A stretch of DNA of 8,580 nt from a virus (lineage: Duplodnaviria; Heunggongvirae; Uroviricota; Caudoviricetes). Positions 205-7,165 of the stretch are shown here, in pieces; position 1 is the first letter of the stretch; each line of letters opens with the position of its first letter. The notes beneath the pieces are model-generated. The model was not told the DNA's origin and ran no database searches. It saw only the letters and a program-made list of their open reading frames with translations. The DNA lies in IMG/VR virus record IMGVR_UViG_2547132270_000009, one strand, 5' to 3'. The translations under genes were made by a program, and so were the position numbers.

Positions 205-426
205 CTGTTCACCTTTTGAGATTTTCCCTTTTTATTCATGATGTTAAGGGGTGAACAGTTTCACAAAAACTATTCACCAACTGTTCACCACTGTTCACCC
301 TTAAGCTCAATAAACAATCAAAAAGGTGAACAGTGAATAGTTTGGTGAACAGTTCATAAATAACTGTTCACCCTATAATATACTGATATAAAAGACATTT
401 ATGATAGGGTGAACAGTGGTGAACAG
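205..426. repeat. iteron array, putative origin of replication of the element (nine 9-bp GGTGAACAG/CTGTTCACC repeats around an AT-rich tract)
   Basis: Exact 9-mers seen directly: forward GGTGAACAG at 250-258, 325-333, 344-352, 408-416, 418-426; reverse CTGTTCACC at 205-213, 281-289, 291-299, 364-372; degenerate copies at 273-279 and 334-340. An AT-rich block sits at 373-405. The array lies immediately 3' of the helicase gene. The core TGTTCACC matches, as far as I recall, the P4 type I iteron bound by the alpha protein. Confidence 0.75.
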
Positions 427-439
427 TTATTCCATAAGT

Positions 440-2972: not shown

Positions 2973-3205
2973 AACCCCCCCCCATTTTCACAATCAGCAA
3001 TCAGGATAGCCCTGGCCTCATTCAGTGCCATATCAGCGGTAAGCTGTGCGTAAGCCAGCGAATGCGGGATTATCGCCCCTGTATATTCCGTCTCTCTGGT
3101 AATGTGTTTTTCTGCGGTTGCTGCCGTGCATGAAATATCAATCAGCGCGTGCATCAGCGTTTTGATGGCTTCGGCGGCTGCGCCCGGACGGGTGTTATTG
3201 CACAT
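2945..3205 (-). CDS. hypothetical small protein (86 aa as read); reads through the G9 tract and stops shortly after
   Basis: ATG at 3205 with AGGGGGTG Shine-Dalgarno; overlaps the Icd-like stop by 8 nt (ATGTGCAATAA). Ends CENGGGLCVMIVLIP. The first ATG of the raw ORF (3247) is rejected because it overlaps the Icd-like gene. Confidence 0.45.
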   Translation of the reverse strand: MCNNTRPGAAAEAIKTLMHALIDISCTAATAEKHITRETEYTGAIIPHSLAYAQLTADMALNEARAILIADCENGGGLCVMIVLIP

Positions 3206-3395
3206 GATGCACCCCCTGACGAATACGGGCGGCGAATACAGCGACACAACCGGACGGGCAACGGTTACGCGCTTCGCGTTCTGTCCAGGCGGTCACGTGG
3301 ATAATTTGAGAATCTCCGGCACTCAGTGCCAGAAAACGCCACACAAAGGCGGTTTGTGTGTGCGCTAGTCGTGGGGTATGCTGTCTTACAGCCAT
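3195..3395 (-). CDS. Icd-like small protein (P4 kil/icd-type host cell division inhibitor family), 66 aa
   Basis: ATG at 3395 with GAGGTAA Shine-Dalgarno 5 nt upstream. Translation MAVRQHTPRLAHTQTAFVWRFLALSAGDSQIIHVTAWTEREARNRCPSGCVAVFAARIRQGVHHVQ fits the F-W-R-F ... EREAR ... AARI pattern I recall for Icd-like proteins of P4-like elements. First gene of the minus-strand operon. Confidence 0.6.
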   Translation of the reverse strand: MAVRQHTPRLAHTQTAFVWRFLALSAGDSQIIHVTAWTEREARNRCPSGCVAVFAARIRQGVHHVQ

Positions 3396-3496
3396 AATCG
3401 TTACCTCATTTAACGGTTTGGTTAGAAGCCCCGTTACTGCTCCAACAGTGCGGGGCTTCGTCGTTTCAATTGCTGAATTGCATGTATCAGCCCTTG

Positions 3497-3550
3497 TGGT
3501 ATTCAGATTACATTTTGGTGAATACCAGTTCAAGTCTTTTTTGGTATTCA
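3497..3550. promoter_or_regulatory. divergent promoter/operator region: three TGGTATTCA sites and a candidate sigma70 promoter for the minus-strand operon
   Basis: TGGTATTCA at 3497-3505 (direct), 3519-3527 (inverted) and 3542-3550 (direct); the first two form an inverted repeat with a 13-bp spacer. On the minus strand, -35 TTGAAC (plus 3528-3533), 17-bp spacer, -10 TAATCT (plus 3505-3510) overlap these sites. Confidence 0.4.
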
Positions 3551-3594
3551 CTTTTGTATTACACTGCATCCCGTTATTAATCGGAGGTGCAAAC

Positions 3595-3900
3595 ATGTCC
3601 ACGAGTTCTGTTAACAATAAGTCACAGCAACTGAATGCCAGATTTCCACATGAAGTAGTGAGTGGCATTGAGGCATCCCTACAGCCTGGGGAAACTAAAG
3701 CGAATTTTATAGTTACGGCTGTACGCGGTGAAATCGCCCGCCGCCAAGCAGAAGGAAGAGGAGAAAATCCCCTGGTTTCTTCGCTCGATGCACTGGCGCA
3801 GGTGGAAAAAATCGGTGTCAAAGCAGCCGAGGAGATCGGGCAACTCGTCACCGTCGCGCGTGAAGAACTCCAGCGCCGCAAGGCCAAAGAACAGGAGTAG
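3595..3900 (+). CDS. ribbon-helix-helix DNA-binding protein, YlcI/YnfO (DUF3950)-like; candidate regulator of the element
   Basis: ATG at 3595 with GGAGGTG Shine-Dalgarno; 101 aa. N-terminal LNARFPHEVVSGIEASL...KANFIVTAVRGEIARR fits the RFP...NF...RR pattern of YlcI/YnfO-type proteins; charged helical C-terminus. It is the only + strand gene inside the element, divergent from the operon. Confidence 0.7.
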   Translation: MSTSSVNNKSQQLNARFPHEVVSGIEASLQPGETKANFIVTAVRGEIARRQAEGRGENPLVSSLDALAQVEKIGVKAAEEIGQLVTVAREELQRRKAKEQE

Positions 3901-4394
3901 TTGATCAGCACCGGGCGCCCAGAAAAAATCGTATCAGTCGCGCCACCAGCAAAATTTTTTGCTTTCCGGACAGCGTGGCCAACGACATTTTGCAGCAAAA
4001 TATTCTGCATTTCTGGCGTGCTGTAGTAACGGTGATCAGCGCCTTCACATTGAACGAACTTGTCGCTAAAATTCACCCATATAGCAAACATCGCGGTGCT
4101 GTAGGTAATTCGTTCACAAAGGCGCTCCGGCAACGGGGCGCTTTTTGTTTTTATTAGTTTGTAGAAACCTGACTCAGAGATAATGCTCATATTCTGATTG
4201 CCGTCAGGGGTGTAAGTTAAATTTACTCCCTTTTTATCATCAAACATCTGCAACGCTCTGGCGTTAACAATATTGGTTTCACTCCCGCCAGTAAGGCCGG
4301 AAATAACCGGAATAATTTCGGCAAAATTTTGCAGATTCTGTTTTTCAGGACGAACGAAGCCCCGCCCTTGTTCGGGAGAATATCCAGTATTCAT
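3900..4394 (-). CDS. Bro-N-like (antirepressor-type) protein; 3' end unresolved, possibly a pseudogene
   Basis: ATG at 4394. The first 120 or so residues contain Bro-N-like blocks (FDDKKGV...NMSIISESGFYKLIKTKSAPLPERL). The frame has no stop until 3195, running antisense through the RHH gene and into the Icd-like gene, so the real C-terminus cannot be set from sequence; 3900 is an approximate boundary. Both other minus frames hit stops near 3903-3930. Confidence 0.35.
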
Positions 4395-4446: not shown

Positions 4447-4635
4447 TTAGTGAACTGCCTCGCAGCTTTCCTTCCATGCCAGAACTTCGGATAAAGACCA
4501 GCCAACGGAACGACCGCCGAGCTTACGCCGTGATGGGAATTGTCCGGTTTTTTCCAGGCGGTACCGACATGAACGGCTCAGGCCTGTAAGTTGCTGACAT
4601 TCTTTTTCACGTATAAAGCGATCTGTGCTTAACAC
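4447..4635 (-). CDS. alpA: AlpA-family phage regulatory protein (excisionase/activator-like), 62 aa
   Basis: GTG at 4635 preceded by an AGGGGGA Shine-Dalgarno. Translation ...ECQQLTGLSRSCRYRLEKTGQFPSRRKLGGRSVGWSLSEVLAWKE fits the AlpA helix-turn-helix pattern. Upstream in-frame ATGs (up to 4803) lack a ribosome-binding site. Confidence 0.8.
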   Translation of the reverse strand: MLSTDRFIREKECQQLTGLSRSCRYRLEKTGQFPSRRKLGGRSVGWSLSEVLAWKESCEAVH

Positions 4636-4930
4636 AATTCCCCCTTTGATATTTCTTAAAGAGTTATTTGGTGTCCTATTGTGTTGTGGTGCGTCGGATT
4701 GTGTCAGGGTGTTTATGGAATGGCAAACACTGGCGGCGGTCATTTTACAGAAGTGTGGTAATGAGAATAAAAACTCTTTTAATTCATTGTGGTGCAAAGG
4801 CATAAAATTCTGTTTTTACGCCTTTTTTACATGTTTTTAAGAGTGATTCGCCAATGTACAAAAAGCCAGTAAAACGACTGAAAATCAACTTTTTAGGGTG
4901 TCAGTCAGATGTTAATCAAGTTTGTTCCAG

Positions 4931-4980
4931 ATTGTTCGCCGTTGTTCGTCGTGGTGTCTCGTTGTTTCACGTTGTGTCAG
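4931..4980. repeat. five tandem degenerate 10-bp repeats (consensus GTTGTTCGYC) just downstream of the integrase stop
   Basis: Consecutive 10-mers attgttcgcc / gttgttcgtc / gtggtgtctc / gttgtttcac / gttgtgtcag at 4931-4980, one helical turn apart. On the minus strand they read as GAACAA-type motifs. Related GTGTCAG motifs at 4701-4707 and 4897-4903. Confidence 0.5.
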
Positions 4981-5002
4981 TTCTAAAAAATCGCAAAAAA
5001 AA

Positions 5003-6250
5003 TTATATTTCTCTGGCTATTGGCAGTGTGGTTACGTTTTTGTGAGTACCCGCCAGTATCTCTAACCGCTCTGTCCACATGTCCAGCGCATTACGTTTCG
5101 CATCGAGATAACGGGAGTGGTTATAGACTCGCTGCATCCCTGGCATCTGGTGAGCGGTGAGTTGTTCGACAATATGCGGATCCACGCCTAAATCGTTCAG
5201 CATCGTGGTAAACGTGCGCCGTATATCGTGTAGTGACCAGTGCGGATGGTTTAATTTTTTGTGCATGAATCTGCCGTATTGCGACACACTGGCTTCCTGT
5301 TTCAGTTCCCCGAGTAATAGCCCTGTGTGTCTGTTCTGCTCCACCAGCTGCGTGACGAACGGTAAAATGCTTTCCGGTATTGGCCTGAATATGGCGACCT
5401 TCGTTTTGCTGTGCTCTTTCGGTACTGTCCAGAGCATTTCCTTAAAATCCCACTCCCTGATCTCCGATAATCTCAGTTCTCCGGTTCGGCAGCCGAACAC
5501 AATCAGGAGGCGGATTAGTGCGCTGTAGTAGGGCGGGAATATTTTTTTATCCAGCGCCTGTAATAATTCGCCAAGTTCTTTGTTGCTCAGCACGCGTTCG
5601 CTTATGCCTGGTTTTTTGCCAACGTCCACCACGTTAAGATCATCCAGAACGTTACTGACTGCGTAGCGACGTTTACGGCAGAACTTAAGCGCCTGTTTAC
5701 ACGCCTGCATCATGTGACCAGACGTTACAGGGGATTTTTTGCGTATCCGGTCAAAACAGGCCAGCCAGTGACGTAACTCGCATTTATCCAGTGGCATATT
5801 GCCAATATGCTGTATGACGTGATTATTCAGGCGGCTTTTCAGGCATACGTAATCGACACGGTTTTCCTTTACGTGCATTTCCAGCCAGTAGCTGATCGCA
5901 TCACCCACCGTTACCGGCTTTAGTGCTTCCTGTATGGAGTAATTAAGCTCATGGCGTGGATTTTTTCCTTCTGCCAGCCATGCGCGACACTGTGCCGCTT
6001 TTTCCCTGGCTGCTTTCAGGCTCAGATCAGGATAATTTCCCAGCTTCAGGCGTTCCGGTGATACCTGGCGTCCAGCTCCTGCCCTGTAGGTGAAATACCA
6101 GGTTAACAAGCCGCTGGTGGAATGCCTGACGCTCAGGTTTCCACCGTCATTAAGAAATGTGGTTTTTGGGGCTGGTGTGCCGTTGATTTTTCTTAGCTGT
6201 GTATCGCTCAGTTTGTTAAGTGCTCTGCTCATAATTTTGAATCCGGTCAT
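5003..6250 (-). CDS. int: tyrosine-type site-specific integrase, P4-like family
   Basis: About 415 aa. N-terminal arm-binding domain (DGGNLSVRHSTSGLLTWYFTYRAG...LGNYPDLSLKAAREKA) resembles P4-type integrases; C-terminal catalytic motifs HDIRRTF and YNHSRYLDAKR (tyrosine nucleophile). Start is ATG at 6250 or GTG at 6253; no strong Shine-Dalgarno for either. Confidence 0.93.
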   Translation of the reverse strand: MTGFKIMSRALNKLSDTQLRKINGTPAPKTTFLNDGGNLSVRHSTSGLLTWYFTYRAGAGRQVSPERLKLGNYPDLSLKAAREKAAQCRAWLAEGKNPRHELNYSIQEALKPVTVGDAISYWLEMHVKENRVDYVCLKSRLNNHVIQHIGNMPLDKCELRHWLACFDRIRKKSPVTSGHMMQACKQALKFCRKRRYAVSNVLDDLNVVDVGKKPGISERVLSNKELGELLQALDKKIFPPYYSALIRLLIVFGCRTGELRLSEIREWDFKEMLWTVPKEHSKTKVAIFRPIPESILPFVTQLVEQNRHTGLLLGELKQEASVSQYGRFMHKKLNHPHWSLHDIRRTFTTMLNDLGVDPHIVEQLTAHQMPGMQRVYNHSRYLDAKRNALDMWTERLEILAGTHKNVTTLPIAREI

Positions 6251-6254
6251 CACA

Positions 6255-6368
6255 ATTAACTACACCATTAACTACACCGATCATTGCACAAGGGGGTACA
6301 ACGTGGAACAAGTTGGAACAAGAAAATTGCAATGAGCTTAAAAATCAAAAACATAATGAACAACGTGG
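6255..6368. repeat. direct repeats between the integrase start and the junction; candidate arm-type recombinase binding sites
   Basis: ATTAACTACACC twice in tandem (6255-6266, 6267-6278); TGGAACAAG twice at 10-bp spacing (6304-6312, 6314-6322); ACAACGTGG twice (6298-6306, 6360-6368). Confidence 0.45.
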
Positions 6369-6397
6369 CACATTATGAAACAGCAAAAAACACTAAT

Positions 6398-6577
6398 TTA
6401 TAAAAATCCGCTATTGATAATGGCGCTGCGTACGCGATCACGCGCTTCCTTTACTGTCGTTTCTGGTAAGCCCACCATTGTTAATCCGGGTAGACCTTTG
6501 CTGATATGTACCTCAACAGTGATCGGCGGAGCATTTACTCCCAGAGCTGCGCGAGTATGAACAATTGATAGTGACAT
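6398..6577 (-). pseudogene. yifB: yifB/comM (Mg-chelatase-like AAA+ ATPase) 5' fragment, truncated after about 59 codons by the inserted element
   Basis: ATG at 6577 with GGAGGA Shine-Dalgarno. Translation MSLSIVHTRAALGVNAPPITVEVHISKGLPGLTMVGLPETTVKEARDRVRSAIINSG matches the YifB/ComM N-terminus from memory, then ends FL-stop at 6398-6400 where the full-length protein (about 500 aa) should continue. The junction is estimated at about 6400-6412. Confidence 0.8.
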
Positions 6578-6849: not shown

Positions 6850-6895
6850 CAAAAAATATCTTGTGTTATTCGCAAAATCTATGGTACCTCTTTAG
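6850..6895 (+). promoter_or_regulatory. ilvL-ilvG operon promoter region
   Basis: Candidate -35 TTGTGT (6861-6866) and -10-like TATGGT (6880-6885) 40-70 bp upstream of ilvL, but the spacing between them is only about 13 bp, so exact element assignment is uncertain. AT-rich upstream sequence (6760-6850) fits UP/IHF-type elements. Confidence 0.4.
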
Positions 6896-6929
6896 ACATT
6901 CCTTCGAACAAGATGCAAGAAAAGACAAA

Positions 6930-7028
6930 ATGACAGCCCTTCTACGAGTGATTAGCCTGGTCGTGATTAGCGTGGTGGTGATTATTATCCCACCGTGCGG
7001 GGCTGCACTTGGACGAGGAAAGGCTTAG
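6930..7028 (+). CDS. ilvL: ilvGMEDA operon leader peptide (32 aa)
   Basis: Translation MTALLRVISLVVISVVVIIIPPCGAALGRGKA, rich in Ile/Val/Leu control codons, recognised as the ilvL leader peptide; TAG stop at 7026-7028. Confidence 0.95.
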   Translation: MTALLRVISLVVISVVVIIIPPCGAALGRGKA

Positions 7029-7050
7029 AGATCAAGCCTTAACGAACTAA

Positions 7051-7085
7051 GACCCCCGCACCGAAAGGTCCGGGGGTTTTTTTTG
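7051..7085 (+). terminator. ilv attenuator, rho-independent terminator
   Basis: GC-rich stem ACCCCCG (7052-7058) pairing with CGGGGGT (7071-7077) around a GAAA loop, followed by a T-run (7077-7084), between ilvL and ilvX/ilvG. Confidence 0.9.
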
Positions 7086-7114
7086 ACCTTAAAAACATAA
7101 CCGAGGAGCAGGCA

Positions 7115-7165
7115 ATGAATAACAGCACAAAATTCTGTTTCTCAAGATTCAGGACGGGGAACTAA
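7115..7165 (+). CDS. ilvX: small protein IlvX (16 aa)
   Basis: ATG at 7115 after GAGGAGCAGG; translation [16 protein letters not shown] then TAA, matching the 16-aa IlvX small protein as I recall it; ends 2 nt before ilvG. Confidence 0.8.

Follow-up and report, generated by a model that had tools for sequence, protein, structure and literature searches.

A helically phased array of 10-bp boxes between int and alpA of a comM-inserted chromosomal island as a probable AlpA operator

The DNA analysed here (the window) is a stretch of 8,580 nucleotides from the IMG/VR virus record IMGVR_UViG_2547132270_000009, and it holds the left end of a satellite of the phage-inducible chromosomal island (PICI) or capsid-forming PICI (cf-PICI) type, inserted in comM. 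The island is read in the order int, alpA, primase and replication origin (ori), with every island gene in the window on the minus strand. The product of int contains Arm-DNA-bind_3 and Phage_integrase domains (Pfam), and that of alpA a Phage_alpA domain (PF05930, E = 2.7e-18) with a helix-turn-helix; both genes thus keep the identities given to them in an initial annotation that was made from the sequence alone. Between the two lies an array of 10-bp direct repeats, the subject of this report, which is probably an operator bound by AlpA. This int-alpA region shares 88% identity with its counterpart in EcCICFT073, the prototype on which experiments have been done (locus L105 of our comparison), and a homologous region was found in 893 of 5426 complete E. 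coli genomes.

The array has six units in an exact 10-bp register (Table 1), each with a TTGTT or TTGTG core on the plus strand; on the gene (minus) strand the core reads GAACAA and the units nnGAACAAnn. The initial annotation had five units (4931–4980) directly following the int stop codon. The repeats are indeed found there, but the units number six (4921–4980), and 22 bp separate the end of the array from that codon (5003–5005). A decayed seventh unit adjoins the array on its other side. At this position the relatives of the O157/roxA/tqsA type possess a good unit (ACGAACAAGA, gene strand) and units 1–2 are missing, so that their subfamily is made up of units 3–7 and that of the window of units 1–6.

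Tandem Repeats Finder detected period 10 at 4932–4952 and 4940–4978 with weak scores (35 and 41). The chain of T[TG]GT words at lag 10 reaches six members, against a maximum of 3 and a mean of 1.8 when the whole window was shuffled 1000 times with its dinucleotides preserved, the motif for this test having been picked after inspection of the sequence. A motif-free lag scan gave 4930–4979 as the sole lag-10 autocorrelation peak in the 8.6-kb window, with 72% self-identity over 50 bp, and a matrix of the box (consensus approximately nTTGTTyCnn) returned only two chains of at least three units in the window, at 4921–4980 and 6322–6283. The array is real and non-random.

Table 1. Features of the window, from the comM junction to the replication origin
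Feature	Position	Strand	Remarks
comM/yifB 5' fragment	6576 down to ~6406		disrupted by the island
Crossover/junction block AATAGCGGAT	6406..6415	-	inside disrupted comM/yifB; common to attL (window) and attR (relative)
Three weaker box-like units GCTGTTTCAT AATGTGCCAC GTTGTTCATT	6355..6384	-	10-bp register; nearer the core; tentative
attL-arm array, four units CTTGTTCCAA CTTGTTCCAC GTTGTACCCC CTTGTGCAAT	6283..6322 (6322, 6312, 6302, 6292)	-	upstream of int, co-oriented
Doubled 12-bp motif GGTGTAGTTAAT x2	6255..6278	-	proposed Int arm-type sites
int	5003..6232	-	tyrosine integrase, 409 aa; N-terminal arm-DNA-binding domain
int-alpA intergenic region			367 bp
T-rich tract TTTTTTTTGCGATTTTTTAG (gene strand)	4981..5002	-	T8-GCGA-T6-AG; between int stop and array
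Six-unit array	4921..4980	+	exact 10-bp register; proposed AlpA operator array
Array unit GTTGTGTCAG	4971	+
Array unit GTTGTTTCAC	4961	+
Array unit GTGGTGTCTC	4951	+
Array unit GTTGTTCGTC	4941	+
Array unit ATTGTTCGCC	4931	+
Array unit TTTGTTCCAG	4921	+
Decayed seventh unit GTTAATCAAG	4911..4920	+
Conserved block TACATTGGCGAATCAC (TACAyTrGyGAAT)	4843..4858	-
Sigma-70-like site TTGCCA-17-CACAAT	4698..4726	-	TG-extended; 60 bp upstream of alpA
Two moderate box matches GTGGTGCGTC, ATTGTGTCAG	4686..4707 (at 4686, 4698)	+	overlap the predicted promoter
alpA	4447..4635	-	62 aa, GTG start, winged helix; Pfam Phage_AlpA
399-aa open reading frame (ORF)	3195-4394		no Pfam match; directly downstream of alpA
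Four small ORFs			after the 399-aa ORF; one DUF4222
D5/primase-helicase	2245-440	-
Iterons GGTGAACAGT/ACTGTTCACC	~225-430		~10 copies, both orientations; just downstream of the primase gene

The intergenic region was compared in 61 distinct versions, taken from E. coli genomes and IMG/VR contigs, which overall are only ~75% identical. The phasing of the repeats is conserved in these homologous elements, five units being present in 36 versions and six in 22, so that 58 of the 61 have five to six. On the gene strand the AACAA cores at 4946–4942, 4936–4932 and 4925–4922, together with ACaAC at 4955–4951, are invariant or nearly so at 10-bp intervals, and the three to five bases between cores vary freely; the core columns hold a mean of 1.77 bits of information and the spacers 1.16 (Mann-Whitney p = 5e-5). 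Units come and go whole, as in one relative that has gained an exact 10-bp unit. From the last box to the conserved TACAyT block the distance is 60–63 bp in 58 of the 61, and the array stands 26–27 or 48 bp from the int stop. Because cores and register are conserved while the spacers drift, the phase, the number of units and the core are all under selection, which for core and phase is purifying. Judged by the alignment, this is what a multimeric protein-binding site would show, and it does not fit protein-coding sequence, leftover slippage or a folded RNA; it lends comparative support to the initial annotation's proposal that the phasing serves cooperative protein binding. A coding role for the overlapping plus-strand ORFs (4854–5045 and 4922–5065) was rejected on the 10-nt period of conservation and on the lack of an annotated gene there in the relatives.

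The same comparison bears on the origin of the repeats. Slippage can produce 10-bp tandems, the relative with the extra exact unit being a case in point, and the iterons at ori (GGTGAACAGT) have GAACA in common with the box; that the array survives as a neutral product of replication slippage, or functions as a set of replication iterons, is nevertheless extremely improbable given invariant cores and variable spacers across lineages that are ~75% identical. The iterons, moreover, differ with the type of primase (window, L102 and L103), while the TTGTTC boxes are constant.

A role at the RNA level was considered, in which an A/C-rich, unstructured Rho-loading (rut) site or another signal would insulate alpA from read-through out of int. 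The gene strand of the array is rich in A and C (A27 C17 G12 T4), the stretch as RNA is less structured than its shuffles (z = +1.5), and no convincing intrinsic terminator was found after int, the T-rich tract that follows int being almost invariant in the 61 relatives with no hairpin ahead of it. Such a role is very improbable in view of the strict 10-nt period of conservation, which is centred on AACAA and not on YC dimers, and of the occurrence of the same word in the opposite orientation at the att arms and upstream of a capsid operon. No Rfam family matched the array, the sole match in the window being the ilv leader.

Beside the comM junction the initial annotation had noted repeats on the opposite strand (6304–6322). 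These are real and extend further, forming an array of four units at 6283–6322 in the attL arm; after 4 bp comes the doubled 12-bp motif (6278–6255), and after a further 22 bp the ATG of int. Two arrays, as with this one and the weaker, tentative one nearer the core, are likewise seen in L093 and L098. The attR arm of a 95%-identical island reads CTTGTGTCTA TTTGTTTCAC GTTGTTGCAT, 14 bp, GGTGTAGTTAAT GGTGTAGTCAAT, ~60 bp and the core AATAGCGGAT, and a three-unit attR array occurs in L010, L102, L103 and L105; this attR module is shared by the islands at tqsA, a second comM island and EcCICFT073. The 18-kb locus of EcCICFT073 has no chains of the box other than those at attL (four units), between int and alpA (six, inverted) and at attR (three).

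Two HK97-type capsid-forming relatives possess a further array of three units, TTTGTTCGTG GTTGTTCCAs GTTGTTCrsT, at 14025–13996 in L102 and 13762–13733 in L103. It closely follows a terminator-like hairpin and precedes the capsid operon; one of the two hairpins passed the terminator scan, and one of the two arrays lies 13 bp before a match to the consensus promoter. This suggests that the packaging genes of L102 and L103 are part of the same regulon. EcCICFT073 is without the capsid-operon array and has a long palindrome in that place (L105 ~8640–8680).

The att arms thus hold two kinds of repeat. The GGTGTAGTTAAT pair is co-oriented in both arms (L010 2309–2332, L102 6844–6821, L103 6255–6232), at ~78 bp upstream of the core in L010 and ~140 bp downstream of it in the window. 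Its GTTAAT is replaced by GTCAC/T in elements whose Int carries the N-terminal variant LLRKL(Y/H)GKPAEKNTFYSDGGNLSVKYLTSGKL, a switch seen also with the mosaic integrase of L004, the remainder of which is 98% identical to the Int of the window. It holds even in attR arms 10–15 kb from int, with 10-bp boxes that are the same throughout. Among distant elements (AlpA 57–70%, Int ~50–63% identical) the 12-bp motif varies freely (GGTGTAGTCAT, GTGCAGTCAGTG, GGTGTATCACTC, TGTGTGGTCAGT); in those with attL available (AlpA 66–70% identical) the 10-bp box keeps a TGTTCG-like core. Since the 12-bp motif co-varies with the N-terminal domain of Int, it is likely to be best assigned to that protein. The 10-bp boxes do not co-vary in the manner of arm-type sites, being identical across both Int variants, and because the box is constant while the 12-bp motif switches it would belong to a second, more conserved protein.

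Two candidate binders had been put forward in the initial annotation, AlpA and the N-terminal domain of Int; the first is now favoured and the second disfavoured, as it is the 12-bp motif and not the box that varies with that domain. Under the latter proposal the boxes would be arm-type sites, through which Int would autoregulate or join a higher-order recombination complex. Int does have Arm-DNA-bind_3 and the boxes do lie in both att arms; a tandem, helically spaced arrangement is found among arm-type sites too, for example at P'1–P'3 of lambda; GGTGT, the 5' half of the 12-bp motif, is similar to GTTGT of the box; and in one distant relative, L020, the array after int resembles that element's own 12-bp motif. 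The proposal is nonetheless quite unlikely. At both arms the Int variant is tracked by the 12-bp motif, the pair of which also holds the position of the annotated arm repeats of P4. The copies of the box at attL and attR fall within the ~250-bp range of arm-type sites, but the array at 4921–4980, at 1.4 kb from the core (6406–6415), is beyond this range and outside any plausible intasome. The capsid-operon array of L102 and L103 is far from any att site, and AlpA activates the intergenic fragment in a host with no int, as described below.

Besides Int, AlpA is the sole protein common to all these elements. Its AlphaFold2 model is confident (pLDDT 88) and shows two helices together with a wing of two strands and a helix at the C-terminus, and the best structural matches to the model are excisionases: GIsul2 (TM 0.83–0.90), RdfS in second place, the Xis of Pukovnik and TorI. 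As modelled, AlpA appears to be a winged-helix protein of the excisionase or recombination directionality factor (RDF) type. The AlpA of EcCICFT073 turns on the island genes and its own promoter, a PalpA-lacZ fusion being activated by AlpA expressed from pBAD; cloned alpA alone causes int-dependent excision and replication of the island with no helper phage, and deletion of alpA stops transfer (PMC6092414). The AlpA of PICMI is likewise needed (PMC10803314).

From the published primers, the 456-bp PalpA-lacZ fragment maps to L105 2373–2828, that is, from 33 bp before the int stop to position +57 of alpA, with the array inside it at 2433–2490. According to the strain and primer tables the reporter host was DH5alpha, which carried only the reporter and pBAD-alpA plasmids and no int. 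Because AlpA alone activates the fragment in this int-less host, an AlpA-responsive element lies within the 456 bp and Int is not needed for the response. The array is the most conspicuous conserved feature of the fragment.

The excisionase fold, the location of the boxes beside Int arm sites in both att arms and the activation of the fragment by AlpA alone are the reasons for which AlpA is favoured as the binder. We infer that 4921–4980 is an operator of five to six head-to-tail AlpA sites, and put the probability of this at roughly 0.6. As in the operator arrays of RDFs, at least three direct repeats stand one turn apart, a winged-helix protein of RDF type is encoded, and repeats lie beside arm-type sites. 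One AlpA monomer would occupy each GAACAA box, one helical turn from the next and cooperatively, with the DNA bent or wrapped. At the att arms, AlpA on the boxes beside the Int arm-type sites would steer Int towards excision; at the int-alpA array it would feed back on its own gene and on the downstream replication operon. Binding might be turned into activation through bending of the DNA, through contact with RNA polymerase at an unmapped promoter, or through relief of H-NS-type silencing, the last being conceivable because the region has a G+C content of 37% and because in Shewanella H-NS binds an alpA promoter (PMC5148205).

Helper phages induce alpA reporters, and in EcCIMP1 they do so even without alpA (PMC6092414; PMC11773190), which would be accounted for if a helper-phage protein or a host factor landed on the array and thereby switched alpA on, AlpA acting elsewhere in the region. 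The orientation of the int-alpA array, which separates it from the att and capsid arrays, also speaks for such a site, as do three 10-bp direct repeats of P4, GCTTTAAGTG, ~150 bp upstream of vis. These we take to be the P2 Cox boxes upstream of PLL, presumably those of Saha et al. 1989. A landing site of this kind is unlikely, however, when the same box is carried by the att arms, at which one would expect an excision factor of the island's own, and when over-expression of AlpA alone leads to excision; a single helper-specific site would also be odd for islands that are mobilised by different phages. Nor did the lambda Xis sites X1 and X2 in the lambda attP arm score on the box matrix, and a likeness of GTTGTGT to X2 was accordingly dropped as evidence that a helper Xis binds.

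Several observations weigh against the array being an AlpA operator. It is inverted with respect to all other arrays of the box (GAACAA as against TTGTTC along the direction of transcription), an orientation without fit to a simple common activation geometry, and it lies ~195–255 bp from the sole consensus sigma-70 match near alpA. It is not universal, because five distant elements (L014, L018, L090, L093 and L098) keep the attL boxes but lack the array, an ORF separating int from alpA in them. In L020 (AlpA 57% identical) four 10-bp units, GGTCAGGA, are located at 1407–1450, ~110 bp past the int stop; this box resembles the element's own doubled 12-bp motif (GTGAGGTCAGTT, 4–30), so Int may be the binder there. 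The L020 contig ends before attL, and its one viral-contig relative is without int. The covariation argument itself comprises few independent events: a scan of genome contigs for independent families with jointly changed boxes yielded 3 loci only, and protein-based look-ups for such families returned elements with an int-alpA ORF and no such array.

On the experimental side, the AlpA of EcCICFT073 left Pint-lacZ unchanged despite the boxes upstream of int (PMC6092414); the Pint-lacZ primers of Fillol-Salom et al. had no match in the CFT073 record. No binding data for a PICI AlpA were found in the literature searched, where the place at which AlpA binds and its cooperation with Int are stated as open questions (PMC10803314; PMC10111431).

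Because it is the sole inverted array of the box, the int-alpA array is perhaps not a simple autoregulatory site. There is an outside chance that it is the entry point of a helper-phage inducer, or else an AlpA-dependent activator site for an antisense promoter directed back through int, and either would add a new layer of control to satellite induction. On the plus strand the last box abuts a -35 of poor quality (TTCTAA), after which come an almost invariant A-rich spacer and TATATT at 5004–5009, overlapping the int stop; such a promoter would have its boxes at approximately -41 to -91, and in the other subfamily at -61 to -101.

The proposed AlpA operator may be set beside several known systems. 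The Vis protein of satellite P4 is, like AlpA, a small AlpA-family protein encoded downstream of int, and the two are 44% identical. The layout of attL in P4 is the same, with four TCC-phased 10-bp boxes (4006, 3996, 3986 and 3976), a pair of 12-bp arm repeats and the start of int; its annotated attP arm repeats are tandem 12-mers that flank the core, one pair just before int, and are in this respect like the GGTGTAGTTAAT pair. P4 differs in its box, TCCG being unrelated to the TTGTTC found here, and in that vis is not adjacent to int. Vis reportedly represses Pint, regulates PLL and Psid and has its sites at attP and the late promoters. It represses, whereas the AlpA of PICIs is reported to activate its own promoter and to be without effect on Pint. 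Vis is reported to be needed for excision and to regulate P4 promoters, acting as both excisionase and regulator (PMC7286903; PMC7498355). Fillol-Salom et al. argue that the lineage of the PICIs is distinct from that of P4.

RDFs characteristically bind direct repeats one turn apart, and several of them, namely Apl, Cox, P4 Vis and RdfS, have promoter sites in addition to those at att (PMC7498355; PMC11963761). Apl of phage 186 and Cox of P2 bind five to seven direct repeats with a spacing of 10–11 bp at att and at a promoter, cooperatively and head-to-tail, with bending of the DNA and weak affinity for single sites (PMC7498355). The number and spacing of units are as in the int-alpA array. 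The protein families differ in sequence, and here, unlike with Apl and Cox, the published effect is activation and the array is located tens to hundreds of bp upstream of the candidate promoters.

RdfS of ICEMlSymR7A, a winged-helix excisionase that forms helical filaments, binds 40 bp directly upstream of the Int arm site in attP as well as its own promoter (PMC11963761). The attL array of the window has the same length, 40 bp, and likewise immediately precedes the putative arm sites. RdfS differs in having no consensus motif (a 5-bp core here), in its extra N-terminal helix, and in that it activates PintS and represses its own promoter.

In helper-embedded PICIs (HE-PICIs) a doubled attP motif, tgTGTATTGCa x2, has been described as a co-oriented tandem of 12 bp, found on both sides of the attP centre at distances of 81 bp (upstream) and 132 bp (downstream); it was called unique to HE-PICIs, and its binder was left open between the arm domains of Int and AlpA (PMC10111431). 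The GGTGTAGTTAAT pair matches this motif, and its covariation with Int would assign motifs of this type to Int. That paper deals with the 12-bp motif only and does not describe the 10-bp arrays or the int-alpA array (PMC10111431). The AlpA of P. aeruginosa has its name, a helix-turn-helix and a positive action in common with the island protein. It is much larger (DNA contacts up to H142) and acts as a Q-like antiterminator, recognising one GGGACG element in the stretch from -35 to -10 and threading the RNA (PMC9371919; PMC7969949). An antitermination model after this protein was rejected for the present island, where AlpA is a 62-aa protein consisting only of the winged helix and the six units lie outside any predicted promoter spacer.

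In Gram-negative PICIs AlpA is the master switch, needed for induction and, in non-lysogens, sufficient for excision and replication. The 10-bp box gives it a concrete predicted regulon, made up of PalpA, both att arms and, in some capsid-forming islands, the capsid operon, and would tell apart the two kinds of att-arm repeat, 10-bp boxes for AlpA and the doubled 12-bp motif for Int. The prediction is widely applicable because of the large number of E. coli genomes that have the region (see above). No description of such an operator array for PICIs was found in the literature searched; the mechanism is the classical one of RDFs, and to a specialist it is useful rather than surprising.

Other sites lie between the array and alpA. 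The conserved TACAyT block may be a -10 region without a good -35. The TTTGCCA of the sigma-70-like site is invariant in nine aligned relatives and in all 61 stands 131–132 bp from the TACAyT block. Near alpA, the initial annotation had placed further motifs in the same phased system, and these amount to the two moderate box matches of Table 1, which are 12 bp apart and out of the 10-bp register. Of the three copies of GTGTCAG that it listed, those at 4701 and 4974 stand; the third begins at 4898, one position from the 4897 given, and is not conserved in relatives. An exact 9-mer repeat, TTGTGTCAG, occurs at 4699–4707 and 4972–4980. The alpA leader also contains a 12-nt inverted repeat, AAAGGCGTAAAA N6 TTTTATGCCTTT (gene strand, 4796–4825), which appears as GGCRT...AYGCC in relatives and has no U-tract after it; it may act as a hairpin in the RNA or as the operator of a different regulator. 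In L018 (2383–2420) and L090 (2243–2275), where AlpA is 66–70% identical, two copies of the palindrome AGTGATATCACT are found just upstream of alpA, and this pair is a different control design for the gene.

The best matches to the window in E. coli (95%) have this island too, with comM on one side and ilvLXG on the other. The window itself ends at ori; past the primase these matches carry genes for ssb, the major capsid protein, a decoration protein and the small terminase; in relatives capsid, portal, protease and terminase genes are present and there are no tail genes. The element is a Gram-negative PICI of the capsid-carrying type. Homologues are integrated in comM, in tqsA or beside roxA, three sites in all, and no tRNA gene was found in the window. 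The closely related integrases at the roxA-adjacent and tqsA sites have arm sequences that are nearly identical.

The iteron cluster at ~225–430 is very likely the replication origin of the island. Other types of primase are accompanied by other iterons in the same place, TGCGGGTTATAACCGCACTTT in L102 and GGTAGACAG in L103. In the slot of the 399-aa ORF the relatives hold very different genes (YlcI/YnfO, Icd-like, fragments), and the position is one of variable cargo, or a 'Bro' zone. Outside the island, the ilv leader upstream of ilvG matched Rfam RF02744 (Rev39_5p_UTR, 156 bits) at 6858–7148 on the plus strand, and within this match a 15-bp tandem repeat, GTGATTAGCCTGGTC x2.5, is present at 6948–6984.

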